A stretch of 64,000 nucleotides of DNA from Elusimicrobiota bacterium (lineage in GTDB: Bacteria > Elusimicrobiota > Elusimicrobia > UBA1565 > UBA9628): the NCBI GenBank assembly GCA_027371715.1, contig DAHXMM010000021.1, forward strand, positions 18,923 to 82,922, read 5' to 3'. Under the pieces are notes generated by a model that made no database searches, was not told the DNA's origin, and worked only from the letters and a program-made list of their open reading frames with translations. Of this stretch, positions 348 to 13,074 are shown piece after piece. The translations under genes were made by a program, and so were the position numbers. Position 1 is the first letter of the stretch; each line of letters opens with the position of its first letter.

Positions 348-1384
348 AGGTTTGGCGGCAACGCGGGTTTGATTCGGCGAAAATGAAGATGCGAATGGCC
401 CAACGCGGGAAATTTCCAAATTTTAGAGGTCTCTTTCCCCGCAAAATCCGAGACGACGATCTTAAGGCCCGAAGAACCAACTGGAAAATTGGTTATTTTA
501 GGGAAACGAAAGAGAAACCTGCGGGGGTGGCCCATATCCACCTCGTTCTCCAAAATTTTTCCGTTTGAAAAAGAAAGCGGCGCGATTTGATAAACGGAAG
601 AAACGCCCATAAAAAAGTTTTTCCCGGGCAAATAGTCAAATTTTCTCTTGGCCAATAAAATATTCTTTCCCCCATGGCCTTTGAAAGCCCAAACCGAAAT
701 GGAAGCAGGCGTTGTCTCAACTGTTGAGGGAGAAATCACGTCAAAAGCGTCCACAATCAGGGCCGACACCTTGCTGGTTCGAGAAAGCGGAAAAATCTCA
801 TTTTTATCGTCGGCCAGGACGCGGTTTTTGGAGTCAATTAAATAAAGCCCGCGAATGACCGGAGGTTTATCGGCGGACAACTTTGGGAAAAATCTTAACG
901 GCTCTTGGTAATGCCCGTTTGAACTTATCACATTGATGTGAACATGCGGAAAAATCCCGTAACCCATTTGAGAGGCGTCATAAATTTTTCCCAGAAGGGC
1001 TCCGTCGGAAACAGTTCCTCCTTTTTTTGCCAAATCAAATAGAGAAGCAGGAATCGTTTTTGGATCGAGATGATGGAATTGCCAGACCGTCCCATTTTTT
1101 TGAACAATCGCAATTTGAAAAGTATAGGGAATTTTAATCCGGTAATAGTATCCCAGCGAGATTTTCCCGGAAACCGGCGCGTAGACCGGAGTTCCCGCCG
1201 GTTCCAGAATATCCAAGCCGTGATGAAAGCCAGGCTTGTCTCCGTAAAATTGAAGGGTATAAGCGAGATTTCCAACATGAATAGGCAGACCTTTAACGGG
1301 CCAAGGCACGACGGAAGCGCCGGTCTGAGAGAAAGAAACGACGGGTAAAAATAAGGGGAAAAGTAGAGCGGAGAGAGTTCTCAC
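344..1384 (-). CDS. secreted M23 (LytM-type) zinc metallopeptidase
   Basis: N-terminal signal peptide (LLFPLFLPVVSFSQT). HxxxD (HHGLD) and HxH (HVH) zinc-ligand motifs are present in the order typical of peptidase family M23. Confidence 0.6.
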   Translation of the reverse strand: MRTLSALLFPLFLPVVSFSQTGASVVPWPVKGLPIHVGNLAYTLQFYGDKPGFHHGLDILEPAGTPVYAPVSGKISLGYYYRIKIPYTFQIAIVQKNGTVWQFHHLDPKTIPASLFDLAKKGGTVSDGALLGKIYDASQMGYGIFPHVHINVISSNGHYQEPLRFFPKLSADKPPVIRGLYLIDSKNRVLADDKNEIFPLSRTSKVSALIVDAFDVISPSTVETTPASISVWAFKGHGGKNILLAKRKFDYLPGKNFFMGVSSVYQIAPLSFSNGKILENEVDMGHPRRFLFRFPKITNFPVGSSGLKIVVSDFAGKETSKIWKFPALGHSHLHFRRIKPALPPNL

Positions 1385-2631
1385 CGGGATTGAGAGAGCT
1401 TAAAATCTTCCGGAAATTTTTTCATGAAACCCCGGACCACCATCCCGACAGTGTCCCCCAAGGCGCAGATGACTTTTCCGGTGATGTTCTCGCCCACGCG
1501 CTGAAGATTGGGAAAATCGTCCTCCACTCCTTGGCCGGACATCACCCGCTCTAAAATCCGGGTCGTCCATTCGGAGCCCTCGCGACAGGGCGTGCATTGA
1601 CCGCAGGACTCATGGGCTAAAAAGCGTTCGATGTTGTGCGCCGTTTCCACCATATTCCGGGTCTCATCTAAAACGACAATTCCGCCTGCTCCCAGAAAAG
1701 TTCCCAAGCCCCTCAAACTTTCAAAATCCATCGGGACATCGATTTCAGAAGCGGCAATGGGAGGAGTAGAAGTCCCGCCGGGGATTACGCATTTAAGCGC
1801 GCGTCCGCCTTTGACGCCGCCCGTGGCTTCAATCATCTTTCGCAAAGGAGTTCCCATGGCAAACTCGTAAACTCCCGGCTTTTCAACGTCTCCCGAAATA
1901 GAGAAAAGTCCGGTTCCACCCGTTTTTGCGACCCCGACTTTTGCGAAGGCCTCTCCCCCATCTTTCAGAATATGAGGAAGCATGGCTAAAGTCTCGACAT
2001 TGTTGACCACGGTCGGCTGACCCATCAAACCTTTGACCGTCGGGAAGGGCGGAGGCTGCCGGGGCCAGGCTTTTTTGCCTTCCATCGTTTCAAGAAGAGC
2101 GGTGTCCAAGCCGCAAATATAAGCCCCGGCGCCGCGCATGAGCGAAATACGGCAAGAAAACCCGCTTCCTAAAATATTTTTTCCGATCAACCCCGCATGT
2201 TCCGCTTCGGCGATAGCCTTAGAGAGAATTTGATGTTGAACGGCATATTCACCTCGGATAAAAATAAACCCATCTTCGGCGCCAATCGCATAAGCGGCAA
2301 TTAAAATCCCCTCAAGAACGCTGTGCGGAGATTTAGTCATTAAAACGCGGTCTTTAAAACAGCCCGGTTCGGATTCATCCGCATTCGCCACCACATATCG
2401 AGGCCCCGGCAATTTATCCTTGGGCGGAACGGTCTCCCATTTCATGCCGGTGGCAAAACCCGCGCCGCCAAGCCCTCTCAAATTCGACTTTTTAACCTCG
2501 GCCGTCGCCTCGGCGGGCTTAAGTGAAAGAGCTTTTTTAAGTCCTTCGTAGCCGCCAAATTTTTTATATGTTTCCAACTCATGCAAATTCGGCTCGTCAA
2601 AATGTTTCGTTAAAATTTTAGTCTCGGTCAT
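1381..2631 (-). CDS. nuoF: NADH-quinone oxidoreductase subunit F
   Basis: GLGGAGFATGMKWE (NADH/FMN site) and ESCGQCTPCREG (4Fe-4S) motifs. Start assigned to the internal ATG (MTETKIL), which is preceded by GGAAACC. Its ATG overlaps the TGA of the upstream spacer mini-ORF. Confidence 0.9.
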   Translation of the reverse strand: MTETKILTKHFDEPNLHELETYKKFGGYEGLKKALSLKPAEATAEVKKSNLRGLGGAGFATGMKWETVPPKDKLPGPRYVVANADESEPGCFKDRVLMTKSPHSVLEGILIAAYAIGAEDGFIFIRGEYAVQHQILSKAIAEAEHAGLIGKNILGSGFSCRISLMRGAGAYICGLDTALLETMEGKKAWPRQPPPFPTVKGLMGQPTVVNNVETLAMLPHILKDGGEAFAKVGVAKTGGTGLFSISGDVEKPGVYEFAMGTPLRKMIEATGGVKGGRALKCVIPGGTSTPPIAASEIDVPMDFESLRGLGTFLGAGGIVVLDETRNMVETAHNIERFLAHESCGQCTPCREGSEWTTRILERVMSGQGVEDDFPNLQRVGENITGKVICALGDTVGMVVRGFMKKFPEDFKLSQSR

Positions 2632-2687
2632 GGTTTCCTTTTGCACAGACTCTGGCTCCAACCACTTCCTCGCTTAAGCTCGGTCAT
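2628..2687 (-). repeat. nuo intergenic spacer element, short form (19-codon mini-ORF bridging nuoE stop and nuoF start by ATGA overlaps)
   Basis: Minus-strand sequence ATGACCGAGCTTAAGCGAGGAAGTGGTTGG...AAAAGGAAACCATGA. The 5' and 3' modules are shared with the elements at 6539-6598, 7406-7519 and 8886-8999. Confidence 0.6.
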
Positions 2688-3178
2688 GCCACAATCTCGT
2701 TGATTAAATTTTCGGTCGCCTTGCCTTTTAGCTCTTCGTTAAAGATCACCGCCGGGGCGTGTTCGCAAGCGCCCAAACATTCCATTTCTTCCCAAGAAAA
2801 CTCGCCGTCCGGAGTCGTCTCAAATTCCTTAACCTTTAGTTTTTTCTCAAGGAAATCGGCAATTTTATCTGAACCCGCCATAGCGCAGGAAAGCCCGTGG
2901 CAAAGCCCGATTCTTTTTCTTCCGGTCGGTTTCTTGGTGAAAAGAGGAAAGAAAGTCGCAACCTGATGGACATGGTTTTGAGTTGTGTCAAAGATTTCAG
3001 CTAAATACGCCTCATCTTCCGGGCGCACGCACAAATGCCAGGTTTGGACCTGCCGCATGGCCTCTAAAAGGCCCATAATGGGATGCGGATAGGCCTTTGT
3101 CCAAGACTGAAGAATTTTTTCTTCCTCCGGGGAAAAAGGCGAAGTTTGATTCAAGGATTGCACTGTCAGAGAACTCAT
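2684..3178 (-). CDS. nuoE: NADH-quinone oxidoreductase subunit E (24 kDa, 2Fe-2S)
   Basis: Cys motifs CHGLSC...C..CLGACEHAP characteristic of NuoE/thioredoxin-like [2Fe-2S] subunit. Its ATG overlaps the upstream toxin gene stop (ATGA). Confidence 0.85.
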   Translation of the reverse strand: MSSLTVQSLNQTSPFSPEEEKILQSWTKAYPHPIMGLLEAMRQVQTWHLCVRPEDEAYLAEIFDTTQNHVHQVATFFPLFTKKPTGRKRIGLCHGLSCAMAGSDKIADFLEKKLKVKEFETTPDGEFSWEEMECLGACEHAPAVIFNEELKGKATENLINEIVA

Positions 3179-3567
3179 GGAGATGACCTCATCTTTTTCA
3201 AAGCTCCGTCAAAAGCGGCGACATAATCTTTTTGAGAAATGCTCATAAAAACCTTTTCCGACTCCCCCTCGCTGTAAACATGCGAAGTGATGTTGCGGTC
3301 TTTAAGCATGCTCAGGAAAACGCTCTCGTCCTTGATAATTCCCACTCGAAAAGCCTCTTCAAGGCAATCTTTTGGAAACCGGCAAGAAACGCCCTTATTC
3401 GAGAAATAAACCTTAAGGCTTTTCCAAAAAGCCTCGAAAGTGAACTCAAATCTTTGAACGACGCCGTCTTTCTCAAGCTCCGTCCTCGCGTCTAAAACTC
3501 CTTTTCTTAACGCCGCAAGAGCGTTTTCAAATTTTTTAATCGCCAGTTCTACTTCTTCATGATCCAT
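3175..3567 (-). CDS. hepT: HepT-like toxin, HI0074-family nucleotidyltransferase substrate-binding protein (HEPN superfamily)
   Basis: QRFEFTFEAFWKSLK and KDRNITSHVYSE (RNxxxHxY / Rx4-6H HEPN motif) blocks match the HI0074/TIGR01987 family. Overlaps the upstream MNT gene by 11 nt. Confidence 0.8.
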   Translation of the reverse strand: MDHEEVELAIKKFENALAALRKGVLDARTELEKDGVVQRFEFTFEAFWKSLKVYFSNKGVSCRFPKDCLEEAFRVGIIKDESVFLSMLKDRNITSHVYSEGESEKVFMSISQKDYVAAFDGALKKMRSSP

Positions 3568-3868
3568 AGACGACCATCCCCGTTCGGAGAATCAAATTCC
3601 TAAAATCCGCCTCGACGTCTTTTAAATAAACGACATCCACCTTATAAAGACCCCGCGCCTCGTCCATGCCGTCTTGAATTTTCCACTCAATGTCCTGGGT
3701 GGGCCTAGCCGCATCGACGCCCAAGTCAAAATCCGAACCTGGGAATTCCGTTCCCTTGGCCCGCGATCCGAATAGAATAATCCTTGACGGGGCAAGTTCT
3801 CTGACAAGGATATCCGTCGCTTTTTCAAGCACCTCTTTTTCTCGATAAGAGAATCGGGAGAAATCCAT
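3557..3868 (-). CDS. mntA: MntA-like antitoxin, minimal nucleotidyltransferase (HI0073-like)
   Basis: ILFGSRAKGTEFPGSDFDLGVD contains the GS...D.D nucleotidyltransferase signature. Sits immediately after the nuoD stop (TAAATG) and upstream of the HepT-like gene. Confidence 0.8.
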   Translation of the reverse strand: MDFSRFSYREKEVLEKATDILVRELAPSRIILFGSRAKGTEFPGSDFDLGVDAARPTQDIEWKIQDGMDEARGLYKVDVVYLKDVEADFRNLILRTGMVVYGS

Positions 3869-5188
3869 TTACCGGTCCAATTCTCCCGCGATCATATTGA
3901 CCGAACCAAAAGTCGGAACAATATCGGCCACCCATCCTCCATCGATGATTTTAGAAAGCGCCGCCATGGGGTTTAAGCACGGTGGGCGGCATCTGACGCG
4001 GTAAGGGCGATCTTCTCCGACGCTTACGATGTGAAAACCGAGCTCTCCGTTTCCGCCCTCGACCGCGAAATAAGTTTCTCCCGCGGGAATCCGAACTCCC
4101 CAATTCCACATCACCAGCTCGAAATGATTCATGAGTCCTTCAATGGAACCGTAGGTCTCTTCCTTCGGCGGCAAGACCGCGGAATGATTGGCGGCGCGGG
4201 CAACGCCGACCTCGCTTCGGTCGTAGCCCTCCAAGGTCGCATCCACCTTGGCCTTGTATTTTTTCAAGAGAGCGGTATCGCCTCTTTTACCCGCATCCTG
4301 ATAAACGAAAGCATCTTTCATTTCAGAAACTTCCAAGGAATGTTTACCCTCGGGAATTTGTTTCAGACATTGCTCAATTAAACGCAAGCTTTGCTCGATT
4401 TCAGCCATGCGCACTAAATAGCGATCGTAGTTGTCGCCATTGCGTCCGACGGGAATTTCAAAATCCAAGCGATCGTAAATCAAATAGGGATGCGCGCGCC
4501 GAAGGTCATAAGGAACGCCGGTTGAGCGCAAGAAGGGCCCCGTAATTCCATAAGCGATAGCGTCATTTTGGGAAATGACTCCAACATTTTCCATGCGATC
4601 ACGGAAAATGCGGTTCTTGGTCAGAAGCTTGTCGGAATCAACCACCGCTTCCCGCACTTTTCGAGAGACTTCGCGGAAATTTTCAGCAAAATTTTTGGGC
4701 AAATCGCCTTTAACCCCGCCAACCCGGGTGTAAGAAGTGGTCAACCGCGCCCCGGTCAACTGATCCACCATCTGATACAAAAATTCCCGCGCCTTGATGA
4801 GATAGAGAAAAACCGTGAAAGCCCCGAGTTCCATGGCCGAAGCCCCGACGCAGGTCAAATGATCGGTGACACGGGAAATCTCCGAGGCAATGGTTCGCAA
4901 GTACTGTCCGCGCTCCGGGATTTCGATTCCCGCCAGTTTTTCAACCGCCATGCAGTAGCCGACATTATTAATTAGCGGAGAGACGTAATTAAGACGATCC
5001 GTATAAGGCACGACATTGTTCCAAATCTCATTTTCCGATTGTTTCTCAAAAGCTCGGTGGAGATACCCAATTTCGGCGTCAGAATGGACGATCCTTTCGC
5101 CGTCTAATTCCAAAACCAGGCGAACGACGCCGTGCATGGCCGGATGCTGCGGGCCCATATTCAAAAGAAAGTTTTTTTGCTCAGTCAT
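3869..5188 (-). CDS. nuoD: NADH-quinone oxidoreductase subunit D (49 kDa)
   Basis: N-terminus MTEQKNFLLNMGPQHPAMHGVVRL and overall NuoD/NiFe-hydrogenase large-subunit-like sequence. Internal ATG chosen; it overlaps the HEPN gene stop as ATGA. Confidence 0.9.
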   Translation of the reverse strand: MTEQKNFLLNMGPQHPAMHGVVRLVLELDGERIVHSDAEIGYLHRAFEKQSENEIWNNVVPYTDRLNYVSPLINNVGYCMAVEKLAGIEIPERGQYLRTIASEISRVTDHLTCVGASAMELGAFTVFLYLIKAREFLYQMVDQLTGARLTTSYTRVGGVKGDLPKNFAENFREVSRKVREAVVDSDKLLTKNRIFRDRMENVGVISQNDAIAYGITGPFLRSTGVPYDLRRAHPYLIYDRLDFEIPVGRNGDNYDRYLVRMAEIEQSLRLIEQCLKQIPEGKHSLEVSEMKDAFVYQDAGKRGDTALLKKYKAKVDATLEGYDRSEVGVARAANHSAVLPPKEETYGSIEGLMNHFELVMWNWGVRIPAGETYFAVEGGNGELGFHIVSVGEDRPYRVRCRPPCLNPMAALSKIIDGGWVADIVPTFGSVNMIAGELDR

Positions 5189-5574
5189 TTTACCACTCCC
5201 AAAAACGGCTTGCAAACGGAAACGATGCGCTCCATGGCGTTGACCGCTTCTTCAGCCTCGGAATAAGCGGCAAAAGCCCCAGGATAGCGCAAATCCACTG
5301 AATATTTATTGAGATTATCCATATCTCTAGGATTCAATCGGGTCTCTAAATCTCCAAGCGACTTCGCCAAATCGAAAAGATCATGTATTTTTGAAAACAC
5401 GATGCCCTTAATGACAAGGACAGCTTTAATATATTTCTCCGCGCATTGTTGCGCATGAAAACAAGCGATATCTATCTGGCCGGGATCGGATTTTGCCTCT
5501 TCCAAAGATCGCTTGGCCGCTCGGCGATCAGCTTCAGCCTTGGATATCCACTCCTGAACATACTCATGACTCAT
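5185..5574 (-). CDS. HEPN-domain protein (PF05168-type), predicted toxin of a second HEPN/MNT pair
   Basis: ...CFHAQQCAEKYIKAVLVIKGIVFSKIHDLFDLAKSL...LRYPG matches the classic HEPN domain. Start placed at the internal ATG (MSHEYVQ) because the longer ORF would overlap the MNT gene by 240 nt. The chosen start overlaps the MNT gene by 11 nt. Confidence 0.7.
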   Translation of the reverse strand: MSHEYVQEWISKAEADRRAAKRSLEEAKSDPGQIDIACFHAQQCAEKYIKAVLVIKGIVFSKIHDLFDLAKSLGDLETRLNPRDMDNLNKYSVDLRYPGAFAAYSEAEEAVNAMERIVSVCKPFLGVVK

Positions 5575-5914
5575 AAAGCACTTTTCCGTGAGCAAGAACC
5601 TCTTTAAAAAAATAATCTCCGATTCTAAGTCTTTCCTCAAGCTCACGGGAACTCCGAACCAAAAGATCCAAGGGCCATTCATGAGTTCCGATTGCGCTAC
5701 TGACGAGATGGTAACGCTGAGTCTTGTCCATCGGAGAATCGAGAACGACAAACAAATCCACGTCGCTATCGGGGCCGGGGTTTCCATACGCATGGGAACC
5801 AAAAAGAATCACTTTCTTAGGATGCGTCTTTTCCACGATACGCCCGACCGCGCCCTCTATCCACGCACGCGGATCGGGGCGAAAACGAGCGGCTATTCCT
5901 CTAGGCTCAGTCAT
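5564..5914 (-). CDS. minimal nucleotidyltransferase (MNT) domain protein, predicted antitoxin of the second HEPN/MNT pair
   Basis: ILFGSHAYGNPGPDSDVDLFVV nucleotidyltransferase signature. Start ATGACTGAGCC overlaps the nuoC stop by 8 nt. Confidence 0.75.
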   Translation of the reverse strand: MTEPRGIAARFRPDPRAWIEGAVGRIVEKTHPKKVILFGSHAYGNPGPDSDVDLFVVLDSPMDKTQRYHLVSSAIGTHEWPLDLLVRSSRELEERLRIGDYFFKEVLAHGKVLYES

Positions 5915-6542
5915 ATTTCACCGTGGGCCGAATAATATTAAAGCTCGGACTATTTTCGCGATCACCAGAGGACGGGCCGATCAAAGGCTGCCTCTTGGTA
6001 ATCGGATAATCTTTGCGAAGTGGATGCCCTTGAAACTCTTCGTACATGAGAAGGCGTTTGATGTCGGGGCGGTCAATAAATGAAATTCCAAACATATCCC
6101 AAACTTCTCTCTCCAACCAGTCCGCAATCGGCCATAAACTCATGACCGAACGCAACACTGGAGGGTTTTCCGGAACTCCGCAATGAACATAAACTCGCCC
6201 CAGATCGTCTCCGGTTTTGGGGTCTAATTTCATCACGCGGTAAACAACCTCAAATCTTTCCTGAACCGGAGCTTTAAGACGCGGCTCATCTAAGCTATCT
6301 GTTCCAGGACGATGCGGAGTTCCGTATTCTTCTCCCTCGGCCGAAGCCAGGGGACGTGGGATAATTTGTTGTTGAAGGGGATGCGCCCGTTTCCAAGAAT
6401 CGGTTTTGTCTCCGGAAGAACCGTAGGCGGAATAGTCGACGGCAGTCAAATCAACGAGCATATTGTAGCCTTCGTTTTTAAGTTTCTTAAGAGTCTCAAA
6501 GGCCTCAGAAGCCGAAACCCGAATTTCTTTGATTTCAGTCAT
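5907..6542 (-). CDS. nuoC: NADH-quinone oxidoreductase subunit C (30 kDa)
   Basis: ERFEVVYRVMKLD and REVWDMFGISFIDRPDIKRLL blocks typical of NuoC. Internal ATG (MTEIKEI) after GGAAGGAAACC. Confidence 0.85.
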   Translation of the reverse strand: MTEIKEIRVSASEAFETLKKLKNEGYNMLVDLTAVDYSAYGSSGDKTDSWKRAHPLQQQIIPRPLASAEGEEYGTPHRPGTDSLDEPRLKAPVQERFEVVYRVMKLDPKTGDDLGRVYVHCGVPENPPVLRSVMSLWPIADWLEREVWDMFGISFIDRPDIKRLLMYEEFQGHPLRKDYPITKRQPLIGPSSGDRENSPSFNIIRPTVKYD

Positions 6543-6598
6543 GGTTTCCTTCCGTATGAACCTTTGAGACAACCATTTCCCCGCTTAGGCTCGGTCAT
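6539..6598 (-). repeat. nuo intergenic spacer element, short form (19-codon mini-ORF between nuoB and nuoC)
   Basis: ATGACCGAGCCTAAGCGGGGAAATGGTTG...ACGGAAGGAAACCATGA. The ATG overlaps the nuoB TGA and the TGA overlaps the nuoC ATG. Confidence 0.6.
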
Positions 6599-7071
6599 TT
6601 AATTGTCTCTCCCGCCTGCTTTTCAATTTTCTTTTGAAGAAGCATGAGTCCCTCCAAAACAATTTCAGGACGCGGCGGACACCCGGGAATGTAGACATCA
6701 ACCGGCACAATCGTGTCAATTCCCTGAACGGTTGAGTAATTATTGTAAAAACCACCAGTGCAAGTGCAAACGCCAAAAGCCACCACCCATTTAGGGGCGG
6801 CCATTTGGTCGTAAATACGGCGCAACACCGGGGCAATTTTATGAGAAATTGTTCCCACTACCATCAAACAATCGGCTTGCCGAGGAGAAAACCGCGGAAA
6901 GGCCGCGCCGAAGCGGTCTAAGTCATAATGAGACGCCGCGGTTGACATAAACTCCATTCCGCAACAAGCGGTGACAAAAGGGTATTGAAAAATCGAATAC
7001 TTTCGCGCCCAACCCAAGGCGGCGTCTAGTTGAGTCGTGACGACTCCATCTAAAGCTTCATCTACCGGCAT
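6595..7071 (-). CDS. nuoB: NADH-quinone oxidoreductase subunit B (20 kDa)
   Basis: CCGMEF...GVCTCTGG...GCPPRP cysteine motifs of NuoB. Start placed at the internal ATG (MPVDEA) behind a strong AGGGGGTG RBS. Confidence 0.85.
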   Translation of the reverse strand: MPVDEALDGVVTTQLDAALGWARKYSIFQYPFVTACCGMEFMSTAASHYDLDRFGAAFPRFSPRQADCLMVVGTISHKIAPVLRRIYDQMAAPKWVVAFGVCTCTGGFYNNYSTVQGIDTIVPVDVYIPGCPPRPEIVLEGLMLLQKKIEKQAGETIK

Positions 7072-7409
7072 TCTAACACCCCCTTCGCCCAAAAATATGC
7101 GACCATGAGGGCGGTAATTAAAACAAACAAGGTCACCGAAAAAACGCCCAGCAAGGTCAAATGCGAACGGCTCAGAGCCCATGGAAATAAAAGGGCGAGA
7201 TCGACGTCAAAGACGACAAAGAGAACCGCAAACTTCCAATAAAGAACAGAAATCTTTTCTTCCGCATGCTCAATAGGCGGCATTCCTGTTTCATACGGGA
7301 GATTGCCGTCTCCCTCGTGTTTAGGCGCGGGCCCTAAAAGACGCCCGGCATAAGTCATAATGGTCGCAATCGCGCCCACGACCAAAACATCTAAAATGAG
7401 AGCAATCAT
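7062..7409 (-). CDS. nuoA: NADH-quinone oxidoreductase subunit A
   Basis: Small three-TM protein with the typical NuoA C-terminus (FLLFDVDLAL...). Internal ATG (MIALIL) overlaps the spacer mini-ORF stop. Confidence 0.8.
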   Translation of the reverse strand: MIALILDVLVVGAIATIMTYAGRLLGPAPKHEGDGNLPYETGMPPIEHAEEKISVLYWKFAVLFVVFDVDLALLFPWALSRSHLTLLGVFSVTLFVLITALMVAYFWAKGVLECR

Positions 7410-7519
7410 GGTTTCCTTCCGTACGGACCTTGGATCCAACCATTTCTGACCGAATATAAATAAGGAAATGCCGCTTCCAAATTCCGTTTAAGATAGCGGC
7501 CTCGCTTAAGCTCGGTCAT
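7406..7519 (-). repeat. nuo intergenic spacer element, long form (37-codon mini-ORF between nuoN and nuoA)
   Basis: 112-nt region about 89% identical to 8886-8999. It equals the short form plus a 54-nt in-frame insertion ending in TTCGGTCAG, which is the inverted complement of the 5' TGACCGAG. Confidence 0.6.
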
Positions 7520-8889
7520 CCCAAAACCCTCTGAAACGCCGCTAAAATCCACGGCAAAAATCCGACAACCGCCGAATACGCGGCGCTTAAAGAAACGACC
7601 AGACTAACGGCGCCAGTCCCTACCGCGATTTTTGAATTCGCAACCCCTTCTTCTAAATATATTTCCCGGACAATACGAAGATAATAAACCAAAGCCGCCA
7701 AGGTGGCGAAAGAAGCGACCACTAAGGGAACATAGAGCCCGGCTTTAAAGGCCTGCCAGAAAATGAGAAATTTCGCCAAAAATCCGGCCGTCGGAGGAAT
7801 TCCGGCTAAAGACAAGGCTAAGGTGGCAAAACAAAAGGCCAAAACCGGGCGAGTTTTTCCTAAACCCCTTAAATCTTTCCATTCTGAAACTCCCGTCAAC
7901 TCCAGAAAGAAGAAAGCGCCGTTACTCATAAGAACATAGGAGAAAAGATAAAAGAAAATGGGAAGAGCGTTTTTCTCGTTGGCGCCCAGTAACAGCCACG
8001 CCCCCACTCCCAAAACCAAAACTCCCGCATGTCCTAAAGACGAATAAGCCAAAAGCCGTTGAAGCCGGGTTTGGTTTAAGGCCGCGAAAGCCGCGAAAAT
8101 CATCGTAAAGGCGCCGATAGCCGGAAGAAGAGAAACAAAACTCGCCTGGGAATATTGCCCCAGCCGCATCAAGAGAAAAACTCCGGCGGCCTTAACCGAA
8201 GTAGATAAAAATCCGGAGAGCATGGGTTCGGAAGCTTCATAAACATCGGGTAGCCAAAAATGCCAGGGAACCGCGCCAATTTTAAAAAGAGCCGCAATAG
8301 CCATAAGGCTAAACGCCGCTTGATCCAAGAAAGAGCCATTTCCGGCAAAGGCAAAACCGCCGGTCGCCGAATAATGACAGGCCAGTCCTAAGAGAAAAAA
8401 AGCGGCGCTGACCGATCCGGCAAAGAAATATTTAATGGCGGCTTCCCAAGAAGGCTGCCCTTTCGCCGGATTTAAAGCCACCAAGAGATAAACAGGAAGA
8501 CTCAAAAGCTCAAGCGAAATAAAGAGCATGAAAAGATTCGCCGAAAAAACCAAAAACGTCATTCCCAAAAGGCTTCCTAAAAGCAAAAGAACTGAAACCT
8601 CATCCGTCCAGGTTCCGGCGATAAAAAAAGGAAGCGCCCCTGCGTAAAAGACCCCACACCACGCCTTGGTTAGAGGATCGGCTTGAAGAAGAGTTGAGAT
8701 CGTTCCATTCACAGGATGAAGAAAAACAAATGCGGCCGCAAGAGTTAAGCTCAATAAACCTAGAACTCGAACAAGCCCCACATTGATTTTCTTAAAGAGA
8801 CCGACGCAAGCGACTCCCAATACTCCGCCAAACAAAGAAATCCCCGACCCCAATGGAACGATTCTTAAAAATAAGGAAACTGGGTTCAT
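7516..8889 (-). CDS. nuoN: NADH-quinone oxidoreductase subunit N
   Basis: Multi-TM antiporter-like protein with the WLPDVYEASEP motif typical of NuoN. Internal ATG (MNPVSL). Confidence 0.85.
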   Translation of the reverse strand: MNPVSLFLRIVPLGSGISLFGGVLGVACVGLFKKINVGLVRVLGLLSLTLAAAFVFLHPVNGTISTLLQADPLTKAWCGVFYAGALPFFIAGTWTDEVSVLLLLGSLLGMTFLVFSANLFMLFISLELLSLPVYLLVALNPAKGQPSWEAAIKYFFAGSVSAAFFLLGLACHYSATGGFAFAGNGSFLDQAAFSLMAIAALFKIGAVPWHFWLPDVYEASEPMLSGFLSTSVKAAGVFLLMRLGQYSQASFVSLLPAIGAFTMIFAAFAALNQTRLQRLLAYSSLGHAGVLVLGVGAWLLLGANEKNALPIFFYLFSYVLMSNGAFFFLELTGVSEWKDLRGLGKTRPVLAFCFATLALSLAGIPPTAGFLAKFLIFWQAFKAGLYVPLVVASFATLAALVYYLRIVREIYLEEGVANSKIAVGTGAVSLVVSLSAAYSAVVGFLPWILAAFQRVLG

Positions 8890-8999
8890 GGTTTCCTTCC
8901 GTGCGAACTTTTGAACCAACCATTTCTGACCGAATATAAATGAGGAAATGCCGTTTCCAAATTCTGTTTAAGAGAGTGGCCTCGCTTAGGCTCGGTCAT
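8886..8999 (-). repeat. nuo intergenic spacer element, long form (37-codon mini-ORF between nuoM and nuoN)
   Basis: Near-duplicate of 7406-7519 with the same ATGA overlaps at both ends. Confidence 0.6.
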
Positions 9000-10441
9000 A
9001 GAATAAGCTTCCCCACAGCGGGACCGACGATATTAAGAAGCGGCCCGGGATGAAGACCGATGACAAACATCGGGATGATGAGAAGCCAAAGAAGAGCTTG
9101 TTCCCTTAAATCTAAATCAAAAACCTTTGGGCTCACCGAGGCGGACTTTCTCTCGCCCAAGAAAACAGCCTGAAATGCGGGCAAAAGATAAAAGGCCGCG
9201 ATCGTCACGCCAAAAACGCCGACCACCGCAATCGGCAAGGAGACCTTCGCCATCCCGGATAAAGACATAAATTCTCCCACAAAGCCGTTCAAACCCGGAA
9301 GCCCGATGGAAGCAAAAACAGTCACGCCAAAAAAGAAGGTTAAAGTTGGAGCCTGGGACACCAAATCGCCGAAATCAGAAAGGCCTCTTTTATGAGTGCG
9401 TTCATAAAGGAACCCAACCATTAAAAATAAGGCTCCGGTCGTGAGACCATGGTTAATCAACTGCAAACTTCCTCCGGCAAGGCCTTGCTGAGTCCGGGAG
9501 GCGATTCCCAAAACACAAAAGCCCAAATGCGCAATTGAGGAATACGCAATCAAGCGTTTCAAATCCATCTGCGCCATCGCCGATAGCGCGCCGTAGATAA
9601 CATTGATCGCGGCAAGCCCCCCCAACCAAGGAAGAGCCTTCATCCCCCATTCAGGAAAGGCGGGAAGAAGCACGCGCAAAAACCCGTAAACCCCTACTTT
9701 AAGAAGAACTCCGGCCAAAATAATGGAGCCCGCCGCCGGGGCTTCCGTGTGCGCATCTGGAAGCCAGGTGTGAATGGGCACCAAGGGAATTTTAACCCCA
9801 AAGCCAATCACAAAAGCCGCGAAAGCGAGAATCGCGTAAAGCCCGCTATTGGGAGCTTTCAAAATATTCATGTCCCAGCTCCAAACGCCGGTCGTCTGAT
9901 GATGGAATACAACCAACGCCAGAATTCCCAAAAGAAGAAATAAACTCCCAAAGAAGGTAAATAGGAAAAATTTAATCGCCGCGTGCTTTCGGTTTTCAGA
10001 CCCCCAAAGACCGATGATAAAAAACATCGGAATCAGCATCGCTTCCCAGAAGATATAAAAGAAGAAAAGGTCTTGCGCGAGAAAAACTCCCATCACCGCG
10101 CCTTCAAGAAAAAGAAAAGACGCCCAAAAGCCCGCGGATAAATCTTGTTTCCAGGAAGACAAAAGAGCGATGATGGTCAAAAAAGCGTTTAGAAGACACA
10201 AGGCCCAGGACAAGCCGTCCATGGAAAACGAATAACTAATTCCGTAGGTAAGCAATTTCCCCGGCTCTGAAAGAGAAGCCAAATGCCCGCTCCAGAAACC
10301 CGTTCCGGCCTGTAAAACAAGATAAAATTCCATTGCCGCGCAGATAACCGAAATCCAGCGCGCGCGCACGTTAAAAGCGGGAGAAAGCAAAGTAAACAAA
10401 GCCCCTAAAATCGGAAAAACCCAAAAAAGCGTTAAAATCAT
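8996..10441 (-). CDS. nuoM: NADH-quinone oxidoreductase subunit M
   Basis: WLPDAHTEAPAAGS motif and Mrp-antiporter-like topology. Internal ATG (MILTLF) overlaps the nuoL stop as ATGA. Confidence 0.85.
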   Translation of the reverse strand: MILTLFWVFPILGALFTLLSPAFNVRARWISVICAAMEFYLVLQAGTGFWSGHLASLSEPGKLLTYGISYSFSMDGLSWALCLLNAFLTIIALLSSWKQDLSAGFWASFLFLEGAVMGVFLAQDLFFFYIFWEAMLIPMFFIIGLWGSENRKHAAIKFFLFTFFGSLFLLLGILALVVFHHQTTGVWSWDMNILKAPNSGLYAILAFAAFVIGFGVKIPLVPIHTWLPDAHTEAPAAGSIILAGVLLKVGVYGFLRVLLPAFPEWGMKALPWLGGLAAINVIYGALSAMAQMDLKRLIAYSSIAHLGFCVLGIASRTQQGLAGGSLQLINHGLTTGALFLMVGFLYERTHKRGLSDFGDLVSQAPTLTFFFGVTVFASIGLPGLNGFVGEFMSLSGMAKVSLPIAVVGVFGVTIAAFYLLPAFQAVFLGERKSASVSPKVFDLDLREQALLWLLIIPMFVIGLHPGPLLNIVGPAVGKLIL

Positions 10442-12297
10442 CTCAGCAACCTCAAAAGCATGACGCCTCCGCCTAAAAGTATCCACCACAAAGAGTCATT
10501 CAGGCGTCCGGAAGCCAAGGAAGAAACGCTTTTAGCCGCGTCTTCCGCCCAGGCGGAAGTGTTTTCAATCCACCCATCCCAGGTCTTTTTATCCCAGAAA
10601 ATACCCAACCAATAGCTCACTTCCTCAAAAAGTAATGTTAAAGCCCCAACCAGAGGTTTTACGCCAAAATCGGCGTCAAAACTTTTTTCAACCTGAGGAA
10701 CACTTTTGCGCCACACCCAATCGAAGGAAGACCATTGCATGGTCCAAAGATAAGCCGCCAAAATTCCAAGAGCGGCCATGGAGGTTGATCGGGTAAAAGA
10801 AGACCAGTCAAAGCCCGGAATCGCAATCAAAGGCGAAGTTCCCAGCCATCCGGAACTGACTAAATGATAAAACTGCGTTCCAAACCAGCCGATTCCCAAG
10901 GCTCCCAAAACGATGAAAAAAAGCGGGACGTTCATCATCGGGCCGGCCTCATGCGGGTGTTCCGGCGGATTTTGTTCTTTTCGAGGGCCTAGAAAAGCTA
11001 AAAAGAGCATCCGGAAAATATAAAAAGCGCTTAAAAAAGCGATGGCAAAACCGGCGACGGAAGCCCAGCCTCCGCGCTCAAAAGCGGCGCCAAGAATTGC
11101 GTCTTTACTATAAAAGCCCGCAAAAGGCCAAATCCCGCTCAAAGAAAAAGCCGCTATGATAAAGAAAGCGGCGGTGACCGGAATTTTCTTGAGGAGCCCG
11201 CCGGTCTCATCAACCGACGCGGTGGGTTTATGAAGGGCATGAGCGATGTTTCCGGCGCAAAGAAATAAAGCCGCCTTAAAAAACCCGTGGGTGAAAAGAT
11301 GAAAAACCGCGGATGAAACTTCGCCCAAGCCCAGACCAAAGGCCATAATGCCCAAATGACTGACGGTCGAATAAGCCAAGATACGTTTCAGGTCTTTTCT
11401 TGTGGCCGCGATAAGGCCCGAGAAAACCGCGGTCAAGGCCCCCACCGCCGCAATGGTATTAGGCAAATGCGGAACGAGCGAAATCAGCGGCCACGAACGC
11501 GCCATTAAAAATATTCCTGCCGTCACCATGGTCGCCGCGTGCATCAAGGCGGAAACAGGAGTAGGGCCTTCCATCGCATCGGGAAGCCAAAAATAAAGCG
11601 GAAACTGAGCTGATTTTGCTATCGCCGCGAGAAAAAGAAACCAACCCACATAGGAAATAGCGGGCGAGCCCTTTCCTAAAAGCGGAAACAAGGCGGCAAA
11701 GCGAGTTTGGGCGACAGGATAAACATTCATCAAAATTAAAAGCGCCAGGAAAAAGCCGATGTCTCCCACGCGATTGGTAAAGAAAGCCTGCAATGAAGCT
11801 CGTCTGGCCGAAGCCTTTTGATACCAAAAGCCGATCAATAAATAGGAAGAAAGGCCCACCATTTCCCAGAAAAGATACATCTGAACATAGTTGTTGGCCA
11901 CAACGAGACCAATCATCGAAAGATAAAAGAGATGGAAGGCCAGGAAAAAGCGTCCAAAAGCGGGATCATGTTCCATGTATCCACCGGCGTAAACATGAAT
12001 AAGCCCCCCAACTAAGGAAACCAGACACAACATCATCGCCGACAAGCCGTCCAAGCGAACTCCAAAGGAAACAGACCAAGACCCCAGCGGCATCCATTTA
12101 AAAGGAGAGACGTCTACAACATGGCCGGAATAAACCTGAGCCGCGATAATCGCCGCCGACACTCCCACCACCGCGCAAGAGAGAATCATCGGCCAATGCA
12201 TCCATTCCGGCTTCCTTTTTAAGAGGACGAAATATCCAAAAAGAAGAGCTGAAACCGGAGCGGCGAAAAGGCAGATGACCGAAAGAGGAATACCCAT
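10438..12297 (-). CDS. nuoL: NADH-quinone oxidoreductase subunit L
   Basis: 619-aa antiporter-like subunit with a long C-terminal extension. Conserved WLPDAMEGPTPVSALMHAATMV block. Confidence 0.85.
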   Translation of the reverse strand: MGIPLSVICLFAAPVSALLFGYFVLLKRKPEWMHWPMILSCAVVGVSAAIIAAQVYSGHVVDVSPFKWMPLGSWSVSFGVRLDGLSAMMLCLVSLVGGLIHVYAGGYMEHDPAFGRFFLAFHLFYLSMIGLVVANNYVQMYLFWEMVGLSSYLLIGFWYQKASARRASLQAFFTNRVGDIGFFLALLILMNVYPVAQTRFAALFPLLGKGSPAISYVGWFLFLAAIAKSAQFPLYFWLPDAMEGPTPVSALMHAATMVTAGIFLMARSWPLISLVPHLPNTIAAVGALTAVFSGLIAATRKDLKRILAYSTVSHLGIMAFGLGLGEVSSAVFHLFTHGFFKAALFLCAGNIAHALHKPTASVDETGGLLKKIPVTAAFFIIAAFSLSGIWPFAGFYSKDAILGAAFERGGWASVAGFAIAFLSAFYIFRMLFLAFLGPRKEQNPPEHPHEAGPMMNVPLFFIVLGALGIGWFGTQFYHLVSSGWLGTSPLIAIPGFDWSSFTRSTSMAALGILAAYLWTMQWSSFDWVWRKSVPQVEKSFDADFGVKPLVGALTLLFEEVSYWLGIFWDKKTWDGWIENTSAWAEDAAKSVSSLASGRLNDSLWWILLGGGVMLLRLLR

Positions 12298-12298
12298 A

Positions 12299-12595
12299 TC
12301 AGCCTTTCAACTCCATCAAGGCGTCCGAATCCGGAAGGGTTTTATTTTTTCTCAAATGCAAAATCAAGGAAAGTCCCACCACCGCTTCCGCCGCAGCCAC
12401 GCACAAGATAATTAAAGCCGCAGCCAGCCCATTTGAGTCTTGAAAAATTGAAGCCTGGGCGACCAAGGGAATCAGGGCGGCTGAAATCATAATTTCAAGT
12501 CCAAAAAGCATGAGTAAAAGTTGTTTGCGTAAAATCACCGCGCAAAGACCGGAAACAAAAAGAGCCGCCGAAATTAACCACGCCCAAGGGTTCAT
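12299..12595 (-). CDS. nuoK: NADH-quinone oxidoreductase subunit K
   Basis: 98-aa three-TM protein matching the NuoK family. Confidence 0.8.
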   Translation of the reverse strand: MNPWAWLISAALFVSGLCAVILRKQLLLMLFGLEIMISAALIPLVAQASIFQDSNGLAAALIILCVAAAEAVVGLSLILHLRKNKTLPDSDALMELKG

Positions 12596-13074
12596 GCGCC
12601 TTTCCTTTTCCCCACCAAGGCAAGTCCCGCTAAAAACATCAAAAGAGTCGCCGCCTCCGTTGCCGGAGAATAGGCCCCAAACAAAACCGACCCCACAGCT
12701 AAATTATTGGGCACAACCGCAGCCGTTGACAGAGAACCCGCGCCCCCGTGAAAAATCAAAAATAGTTCCACCAAAAATCCGGCTAAAAGAAGGGCCGCGA
12801 CCGGGCGCGGAAGCAAAAAACTCCCCCAAAGAGAACCCGTCGGTTTTGGAAACGCCATGATGACGACCACAACCAAGACCATGACCGCTCCGGCGTAAAT
12901 CACCATTTGCATGAGCCCCAGAAGCGGCGAGCCCGCCAAGGAAAAAAGGAGAGCCACCTGAAGCATGACGCACAAAAGGCACATCGCCGCCGCATAAAGG
13001 GATTTCTGGAAGAGCATGAGAACTGAAAAGAAAACCGCCAAGCCTCCCGCGATTAAGGTCATCCATCCAGCCAT
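12592..13074 (-). CDS. nuoJ: NADH-quinone oxidoreductase subunit J
   Basis: 160-aa membrane protein similar to NuoJ. Overlaps nuoK by 4 nt. Confidence 0.75.
   Translation of the reverse strand: MAGWMTLIAGGLAVFFSVLMLFQKSLYAAAMCLLCVMLQVALLFSLAGSPLLGLMQMVIYAGAVMVLVVVVIMAFPKPTGSLWGSFLLPRPVAALLLAGFLVELFLIFHGGAGSLSTAAVVPNNLAVGSVLFGAYSPATEAATLLMFLAGLALVGKRKGA

Follow-up and report, generated by a model that had tools for sequence, protein, structure and literature searches.

The 64,000-nucleotide stretch analysed here (the window: Elusimicrobiota bacterium, GenBank assembly GCA_027371715.1, contig DAHXMM010000021.1, positions 18,923 to 82,922 of the forward strand) carries two different HEPN/MNT cassettes inside the operon for respiratory complex I (nuo). 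Each consists of a minimal nucleotidyltransferase (MNT) gene followed by a gene for a HEPN-domain protein; cassette 1 lies between nuoD and nuoE and cassette 2 between nuoC and nuoD. Judged against close relatives, in which nuoC/nuoD and nuoD/nuoE directly abut, both cassettes are insertions into the operon. The explanation preferred here, with a probability of roughly 0.65, is that HEPN/MNT modules have settled at nuo stop/start junctions, are expressed with nuo, work by type VII toxin-antitoxin (TA) logic and are kept by a benefit of their own together with entrenchment. Loci from related genomes and contigs that were compared with the window are designated by L-numbers (L001 etc.).

Gene order and protein families

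The order on the minus strand, obtained from the list of open reading frames (ORFs) and from reading of the sequence, is nuoC, MNT2, HEPN2, nuoD, MNT1, HepT1, nuoE. Cassette 1 comprises MNT1 (3557..3868, 103 aa, an MntA-like nucleotidyltransferase and the antitoxin) and HepT1 (3175..3567, 130 aa, a HEPN toxin of the HI0074/HepT type). Cassette 2 comprises MNT2 (5564..5914, 116 aa, the putative antitoxin) and HEPN2 (5185..5574, 129 aa, ATG at 5574, a class II HEPN-domain protein and putative toxin); a 205-aa HEPN2 ORF in the program-made list is an upstream extension of the 129-aa protein. The two genes overlap by 11 nt in either cassette. The first-pass annotation had reported two such pairs within the nuo operon, antitoxin first and with 11-nt overlaps, and every detail was confirmed. 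Regarding the host genes, nuoD (3869..5188, minus strand, 49-kDa subunit, PF00346, E = 1.8e-99) stands between both cassettes, and its true start is the ATG at 5188, NuoD proteins of relatives likewise beginning with MTEQKNF or MTEKKTF. Upstream of cassette 2 lies nuoC (5907..6542, minus strand, 30-kDa subunit, PF00329, E = 2.2e-34, stop codon at 5907-5909), the probable start of which is the ATG at 6542, directly after a short junction linker (6540-6598); downstream of cassette 1 lies nuoE (2684..3178, minus strand, 24-kDa subunit, PF01257, E = 1.5e-36).

The junctions leave no gap. nuoC and MNT2 overlap by 8 nt at ATGACTGA, in which the MNT2 ATG overlaps the nuoC stop; the stop of HEPN2 and the start of nuoD overlap as ATGA, as do the stop of HepT1 and the start of nuoE; and at the nuoD/MNT1 junction (TAAATG) the MNT1 ATG abuts the TAA stop of nuoD. 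These junction sequences are present exactly as first annotated. The stretch between the nuoC start and the nuoE end contains zero non-coding bases, the seven ORFs forming a gapless chain of overlapping or abutting stop and start codons. As read from the sequence, the Shine-Dalgarno-like GGGAGTGG of nuoD lies within the final codons of HEPN2, and the Shine-Dalgarno-like GAGG of nuoE within the final codons of HepT1. The N-terminus of nuoE (MSS..QSL) co-varies with cassette presence when junctions are compared.

Cassette 1 is, by its profile, motif and structure matches, a class I HepT/MntA (type VII) pair. HepT1 matched PF08780 (E = 1.8e-28) and exceeded the cut-off of the NCBIfam model TIGR01987 (97.8 bits vs 55.8), and MNT1 matched PF18765 (4.4e-13) and PF01909 (1.6e-9) in Pfam. 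In the motif scan, the GSX10DXD motif of MNT1 was found at residues 34-48 (GSRAKGTEFPGSDFD) and is kept in the orthologue of L007, and the RX4HXY motif of HepT1 reads RNITSHVY (R91, H96, Y98), with RNLTSHVY in the L007 orthologue. This motif aligns with RNQTSHTY of the Legionella pneumophila HEPN toxin 8xdj and with RNLTNHTY of TTHA0048, the pattern RNxTxHxY being common to these proteins and HI0074. The solved structures matched by HepT1 were TTHA0048, TTHA0636, 8xdj and HI0074 (1jog), and the best match of MNT1 in the PDB was HI0073 (1no5). The earlier assignment of this pair to the HI0073/HI0074 type is thereby borne out, and the label 'toxin' appears well founded for HepT1 on its sequence. 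The definitions of class I and class II HEPN/MNT pairs and the mechanism of class I are taken from PMC7641770 (Yao et al. 2020) and PMC11586414; neutralisation in class I pairs is by ATP-dependent AMPylation, the type VII mechanism shown for SO_3165/SO_3166 (PMC7641770). With the class I pairs of Shewanella oneidensis (SO_3166/SO_3165), Haemophilus (HI0074/HI0073) and Legionella (8xdj), cassette 1 shares the MNT-first order, the combination of PF01909 with PF08780, the TIGR01987 match, both motifs and the closest structures. Unlike them, it lacks non-coding DNA upstream as well as a promoter of its own, abuts nuoD, overlaps nuoE and carries the ribosome-binding sequence of nuoE.

Cassette 2 is, on the same kind of evidence, a class II PF05168/PF01909 pair. 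HEPN2 matched PF05168 (1.6e-26) and MNT2 matched PF01909 (9.8e-11) and PF18765 (5.6e-10) in Pfam, and the GSX10DXD motif of MNT2 lies at residues 39-53 (GSHAYGNPGPDSDVD). The residues that 90% or more of 30 aligned family members share, H64 and R96-Y97-P98-G99 among them, are all kept in HEPN2; the tyrosines Y48 and Y97 are both conserved at that level. Its distant relatives in the PDB are 1wol, 1o3u and 1ufb. The class II pairs to which these belong (TM0613 1o3u, TT1696 1ufb and 1wol) are predicted TA systems that are abundant in archaea and thermophiles; cassette 2 resembles them in having PF05168 beside PF01909, in the nucleotidyltransferase motif and in the conserved tyrosines, and is unlike them in being embedded between nuoC and nuoD by stop/start overlaps. 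The toxin role of HEPN2 is predicted from its family.

The nuo cluster of the window occupies bases 1381-13074 on the minus strand in the order nuoJ-K-L-M-N-A-B-C-D-E-F, flanked upstream by a PorV-like gene and downstream by one for an M23 peptidase. No match to nuoG, nuoH or nuoI was found in the 64-kb window by tblastn with the proteins of L003 (NuoD 80% identical), in which the order is L-M-N-A-B-C-D-E/F (fused)-G-H-I.

Insertion, conservation and strain variation

The empty sites are seen in several relatives. The best NuoD homologues (75-92% identity, among 8000 homologues in the search) were nearly all annotated as Elusimicrobia metagenome-assembled genomes. In L001 and L002 (NuoD 87% identical) the nuoC stop overlaps the nuoD start at ATGACTGA, in the context ATGACTGAGAAAAAAAC, nuoD and nuoE overlap as ATGA, and both sites are empty. 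The nuoD/nuoE junction is likewise empty, and reads TAATATG, in L005 (NuoD 95%) and L006 (94%), L005 being the closest relative found (NuoD 95%, NuoF 95% and NuoE 93% identical). The synteny of nuoC-D-E in relatives, which had been proposed as a check, thus demonstrates insertion relative to empty sites. The ATGACTGA overlap at nuoC/MNT2 is the ancestral nuoC-stop/nuoD-start motif and not a property of the cassette; a ATGACTGA-type motif also forms the 5' end of the junction linker that is repeated in the nuo operons of this clade.

Cassette 2 is flanked by a 10-bp direct repeat, ATGACTGAGC, the left copy of which (5905..5914, minus strand) holds the nuoC stop and MNT2 start and the right copy of which (5179..5188, minus strand) holds the HEPN2 stop and nuoD start. 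Exactly two copies occur in the 64 kb (0.03 expected), one at each end of the cassette, and the empty nuoC/nuoD site of L001/L002 holds a single ATGACTGAG. The same signature is found at an MNT-HEPN cassette upstream of nuoF in the Methylomirabilota locus L092, which is flanked by two copies of GTGAGCGAGAAGATC, the start of nuoF (about 5836-5850 and 6603-6617 of L092); its MNT therefore begins with VSEKI, like NuoF.

Across the loci, four independent insertions at nuo junctions share the feature that the opening 8-15 nt of the downstream gene stand on either side of the insert. The duplicated starts are ATGACTGAGC in the window, GTGAGCGAGAAGATC in L092, ATGAGTGAG/ATGAACGAG in L004 (3238-3246 and 3541-3549) and ATGACCGA in L179 (about 1-8 and 59-66), and the inserts are two MNT-HEPN cassettes, one HicB-like gene and the linker. 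A start codon is thereby left both to the insert and to the gene that it displaced. The duplication could have arisen by target-site duplication, by template switching or by selection. By analogy only, with no membership implied, the cassettes may be compared to integron gene cassettes, which they resemble as promoter-less ORFs at a defined site downstream of a host or platform promoter and in their variation between strains; unlike integrons, the window has no integrase, attI or attC, and the sites are operon stop/start overlaps with duplicated downstream starts (8-15 nt).

The arrangement is not an artefact of one assembly. Identical nuoD-MNT1-HepT1-nuoE arrangements were independently assembled on at least 15 contigs of the window species, from several samples and pipelines, and a cassette within the nuo operon also appears on 12, 12 and 19 contigs in three related species; these counts, the gapless chain of frames and the host-like composition of the cassettes practically eliminate an assembly chimera or mis-binned mobile DNA, which the metagenome-assembled source of the sequence might have suggested.

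Cassette 2 occurs at nuoC/nuoD in four species-level lineages (window, L165/166, L169-172 and L179) and cassette 1 at nuoD/nuoE in three (window, L007/L173-176 and L178). The MNT2 orthologues of L165, L169 and L179 are 82-86% identical and those of HEPN2 71-76%; all four HEPN2 homologues of at least 71% identity that were checked lie between nuoC and nuoD, the homologue protein P0149 (68%, on a 900-bp contig) having been left out of this context check. HepT1 orthologues are 66% (L007/L173) and 79% (L178) identical, and all homologues of at least 66% lie between nuoD and nuoE. The next homologues (50-59% identity) stand in non-nuo contexts, one beside a ParE toxin gene and one after a glycoside hydrolase gene. 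A search of the 64-kb window found no further MNT or HEPN paralogues, and the GC content of the cassettes, overall and at third codon positions (GC3), resembles that of the host genes.

Ratios of non-synonymous to synonymous substitution rates (dN/dS, Nei-Gojobori) were 0.05-0.07 for MNT2, 0.05-0.11 for HEPN2, 0.12 for MNT1 and 0.15 for HepT1, and 0.03 for nuoD and 0.05-0.10 for nuoC and nuoE. The dS of the cassettes ranged from about 0.9 to saturation, of the same order as in the flanking nuo genes. Given such low ratios and a synonymous divergence of around 1 or above, purifying selection has therefore acted on the cassette proteins throughout the divergence of the species.

Occupancy nevertheless varies. 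Neither cassette is present in L005 or in L001/L002; cassette 1 is missing from L165 and L169 and cassette 2 from L007. L179 and L007 are conspecific (NuoC 100% identical, nuoC and nuoD DNA about 99%), and cassette 2 is found in L179 only. Because they are absent from the closest relative, L005, and variable between strains, the cassettes are optional passengers and not obligatory subunits of complex I. It had been stated beforehand that conservation of the same ORFs as non-toxic nuo accessory subunits would count against a TA reading: fixed position and purifying selection in several species point that way, and the absence from L005 and the strain variation point against it. The first approximately 11 codons of nuoE and the empty nuoD/nuoE junction are common to L005, L165 and L169, although L005 is otherwise nearest to the window. 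Between L165 and L169, the dS of the cassette is about twice that of the flanking genes. Both observations argue against plain vertical descent with independent losses; the occupied and empty alleles may instead be old and exchanged by homologous recombination.

Similar insertions were sought among 164 loci around NuoD homologues. Co-directional MNT+HEPN pairs (PF01909 and PF05168) were found directly upstream of nuoF in L092/L010 (Methylomirabilota) and in L127 (an unclassified contig), with an ATGA overlap between HEPN stop and nuoF start in the latter. L092 and L127 came from a scan of metagenome contigs with NuoD, which returned only relatives of 63% identity or less.

Expression, proposed function and alternatives

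The inserted DNA of the window spans the MNT start codons to the HEPN stop codons and contains no non-coding DNA; there is therefore no room for an upstream promoter of the cassettes' own. For this reason, transcription from the nuo promoter(s) with sequential, coupled translation is likely. An own promoter/operator upstream, as in an autonomous chromosomal TA operon, was found for neither cassette in the window.

TA modules that are co-transcribed with housekeeping or regulatory genes are known from relA-mazEF of Escherichia coli and mazEF-rsbUVW-sigB of Staphylococcus aureus. The likeness is that the TA pair shares the host transcript and its expression follows the host promoter. Those modules are of type II with a labile protein antitoxin, stand at an operon edge and have an autoregulated promoter of their own; unlike them, the pairs in the window lie mid-operon between adjacent genes for enzyme subunits and have no space for a promoter.

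In the proposed scheme, two promoter-less HEPN/MNT modules would have inserted at nuo stop/start junctions in the ancestor of a small uncultured Elusimicrobiota clade and would be expressed as part of the nuo polycistron, so that MNT and HEPN proteins are made together with the complex I subunits. MNT1 would silence the RNase by ATP-dependent AMPylation of HepT1 at Tyr98, a residue adjacent to the RNase site R91/H96; without this modification, HepT1 would cleave RNA and growth would stop. In cassette 2, MNT2 probably nucleotidylates a conserved tyrosine of HEPN2 in the same way. An enzymatic antitoxin would require neither excess synthesis nor an autoregulated promoter of its own, which would account for the tolerance of this TA type to being built into a housekeeping operon. 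It should cope better than a labile type II antitoxin with expression at a fixed ratio, a possible reason why the inserts that are co-directional and promoter-less are HEPN/MNT pairs. Persistence is probably due to a selfish or defensive benefit and to entrenchment, because the cassettes now supply the start context of nuoD and nuoE, which a deletion would have to rebuild.

Several observations weigh against this explanation. Promoters inside the coding sequences of nuoC or nuoD are possible: a scan for sigma-70-type promoters gave 10 sites against 8.7 expected, a chance-level result that neither supports nor excludes internal promoters and that relies on the sigma-70 consensus in a phylum with uncharacterised promoters. 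A scan for terminators was likewise at chance level (25 sites vs 25.0 expected). The orthologues of cassette 2 in L165, L169 and L179 follow nuoC after spacers of 41-195 nt. The 41-nt nuoC-MNT2 spacer of L165 (4641-4681) holds an inverted repeat of 7 nt (AAAATAC...GTATTTT) and an extended -10-like TGTATAAA, which lies about 10 nt upstream of the MNT2 start codon and is absent from the window; these could be a remnant or a functional promoter/operator of the cassette. The ancestral cassette 2 may have had its own promoter, possibly still present in L165, L169 and L179. The first-pass annotation had described the cassettes as apparently coupled to nuo in translation and as having no promoters of their own. 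The absence of non-coding bases in the window upholds this, and the claim is weakened in that the ATGACTGA overlap does not belong to the cassette and in that spacers precede the orthologues. The doubled cassette dS between L165 and L169 is a misfit with simple co-divergence. Both nucleotidyltransferases fall below the equivalog cut-off of the MntA antitoxin model in NCBIfam (for MNT1, NF047752, 50.9 bits vs 60 bits). Recurrence above random insertion in TA-rich genomes is not demonstrated, since about 0.5 or fewer pairs would be expected in about 550 junctions vs 2 further cases, a non-significant difference; the estimate is rough, the loci consisting of little other than nuo DNA and the initial two cases being the ascertainment.

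The remaining adverse points concern cassette 2, which may not be a TA system at all. It might combine a non-toxic nucleotidyltransferase with a substrate-binding or regulatory HEPN protein, in the manner of kanamycin nucleotidyltransferase, a reading considered unlikely and yet the strongest of the alternatives. Like other class II HEPN proteins, HEPN2 has no RX4H motif: the motif scan found no RX4-6H RNase motif in it or in any of its orthologues, and where the HEPN protein of the Methylomirabilota locus L092 has RLKKIH they read (I/V)(V/I)FSKIH, with Val or Ile at the position of the Arg. HEPN2 also had no match in NCBIfam or PADLOC. As of 2020, class II pairs had no biochemical study and their TA status was still to be validated (PMC7641770); no later validation was found in the literature searched. 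On the other side, an active site might be built from the invariant or near-invariant polar residues H64, R96, Y97, E14, D16, K47 and Y48; in gene order, 11-nt overlap and size the pair matches class I; and MNT2 keeps GSX10DXD. Of the initial description of cassette 2 as an MNT/classic-HEPN toxin pair, the family assignment stands and the word 'toxin' is to be taken as a prediction.

It is rather improbable that the pairs are domesticated regulators which couple complex I expression or the stability of nuo mRNA to the energy state of the cell, newly made HEPN remaining unmodified at low ATP and cleaving RNA, possibly the nuo transcript. Such a role would be in line with the long retention at fixed sites under purifying selection, with the ATP-dependent neutralisation established for class I pairs, and with the orientation of the inserts, all four independent MNT-HEPN inserts in nuo operons being co-directional and the HicB/PHD-like inserts antisense. 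Purifying selection, however, is equally expected of a selfish or defensive TA system; four of four co-directional inserts correspond only to p of about 0.06, and an antisense promoter-less insert would stay unexpressed. The cassettes are missing from L005, and one strain of the L007/L179 species also manages without them, so the role would be dispensable. The addiction or stress-response role tied to respiration, which the first-pass annotation put forward as one possibility, is likewise hypothetical. A wider version, in which HEPN/MNT modules were captured as ATP-sensing respiratory checkpoints and their recurrence in nuo operons of three phyla is convergent domestication, is similarly doubtful. 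If true, with the modules translated in one fixed chain with the complex I subunits, AMPylation of HEPN by the MNT, which depends on ATP, would report energy status, and the unmodified HEPN RNase would throttle nuo or global mRNA when respiration fails.

Equally little credence is given to the reading of the cassettes as abortive-infection modules against phages for which a strong constitutive operon of the host serves as expression platform. HEPN RNases are common effectors in defence systems, and presence or absence at strain level is typical of defence genes. Both MNT proteins weakly matched the PADLOC candidate-defence model PDC-S09, and MNT2 also the nucleotidyltransferase HalB of Hailong; these matches are, however, weak and at domain level, neither HEPN protein matched PADLOC, no defence genes lie nearby, and no other MNT or HEPN gene occurs in the 64 kb of the window.

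The preferred explanation, i.e., junction-borne modules expressed with nuo and retained by benefit and entrenchment, involves protein families that are known and abundant. No published precedent for HEPN/MNT cassettes in a nuo operon was found in the literature searched, which agrees with the initial statement that the arrangement is not a described one. New, among that literature, are the flanking of one complex I gene by two different classes, the gapless chain of ORFs, the conservation across species, the strain variation and the similar inserts in other phyla. The locus provides a natural case of modules without autonomous expression that are fitted without a spare base into the operon encoding the main NADH-oxidising and proton-pumping enzyme, for which related species and strains supply occupied and empty alleles. 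Three questions are made testable by it: whether a type VII antitoxin can tolerate fixed-ratio expression with its toxin, whether TA cassettes entrench themselves when they come to contain the ribosome-binding sites of essential genes downstream, and whether AMPylation-controlled RNases are functionally linked to energy metabolism. If all three answers were no, it would still be a clean example of selfish cassettes colonising the stop/start junctions of an essential operon.

Junction linker and other nuo insertions

The nuo junctions of the clade also carry a repeated linker, ATGACYGAGCYTAAGCG...AAATGGTTGG...GGAAGGAAACCATG(A), the signature of which can also be written ATGACYGAGCYTAAGCG...GGAAACCATG. 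It exists in a short form of 59 nt and a long form of 113 nt, the latter being the short form with an in-frame insert of 54 nt. The linker ATG overlaps the upstream stop (ATGA), a mini-ORF (MTEPKRG..NGW..GRKP*) follows, and its TGA overlaps the downstream ATG. On the minus strand of the window, copies lie at 2629-2687 (nuoE-nuoF), 6540-6598 (nuoB-nuoC), 7407-7519 (nuoN-nuoA) and 8887-8999 (nuoM-nuoN), four in total vs 0.01 expected and none outside the nuo cluster. Among the relatives, copies were located in L005 (4086-4144, 6945-7003 and 8825-8937), L169 (1771-1829 and 7208-7317) and L179 (1-59 and 694-873). At nuoB-nuoC the linker is present in L179 and absent from the conspecific L007, and its insertion duplicates ATGACCGA. 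The first codons of MNT2 in the window (MTEPRG) are the 5' end of this linker fused in frame; MNT2 of L165 begins MNSFRPDP after its 41-nt spacer.

A filler of 52-60 nt between nuoC and nuoD in L005 and L007 was considered as a deletion scar of cassette 2 and rejected, the same linker being present at four other nuo junctions of the window and at several in relatives; L179, which has the linker and cassette 2 side by side, also rules this reading out. The fold of the long linker (7407-7519 and 8887-8999) is a strong hairpin (consensus energy -29.7 kcal/mol), in which UGACCGAG, holding the upstream stop codon and the mini-ORF start, pairs with UUCGGUCA. In the short and long forms alike, AUGGUU can pair with AACCAU directly before the downstream start codon. 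Covariation support for these folds was absent from the two alignments used (A2 and A3), all pairs being invariant. Possible identities of the linker are a relay for translational coupling, a structure in the mRNA and a mobile element of small size.

Other inserts were encountered in the surveyed nuo operons. The nuoE-nuoF gap of L092 (4805-6590, corresponding to 4760-6545 of L010) contains an antisense PHD_like antitoxin gene with a 77-aa partner, a 131-aa ORF and the MNT+HEPN pair; that of L015 (8874-9395) contains the antisense pair only, and that of L127 (6775-8508) a gene for a NucS_C-domain protein and the MNT+HEPN pair. Antisense PHD_like/HicB-like antitoxin genes are thus found in the nuoE-nuoF gap of L092 and L015, and also in the nuoC-nuoD gap of L004. 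In Pfam, the 95-aa ORF of L092 matched PF12910 only and the L004 ORF matched DUF7387 below threshold and shares homology with the antitoxin of L092 (E = 4e-11). NCBIfam returned nothing for the 77-aa ORFs beside these antitoxins in L092 and L015 or for a 72-aa ORF of L004, and the label HicA for the partner ORFs is a guess made by eye. In the 279-nt nuoE-nuoF spacer of L007, neither a tRNA gene nor an ORF with a profile match was found. A gene for a 354-aa DHH/DHHA1 phosphoesterase is inserted between nuoC and nuoD in the Acidobacteriota locus L013 (5899-6963), and an antisense tRNA-Phe(GAA) gene lies in the nuoE-nuoF spacer, about 350 nt long, of L001 (6666-6739) and L002 (5286-5359).

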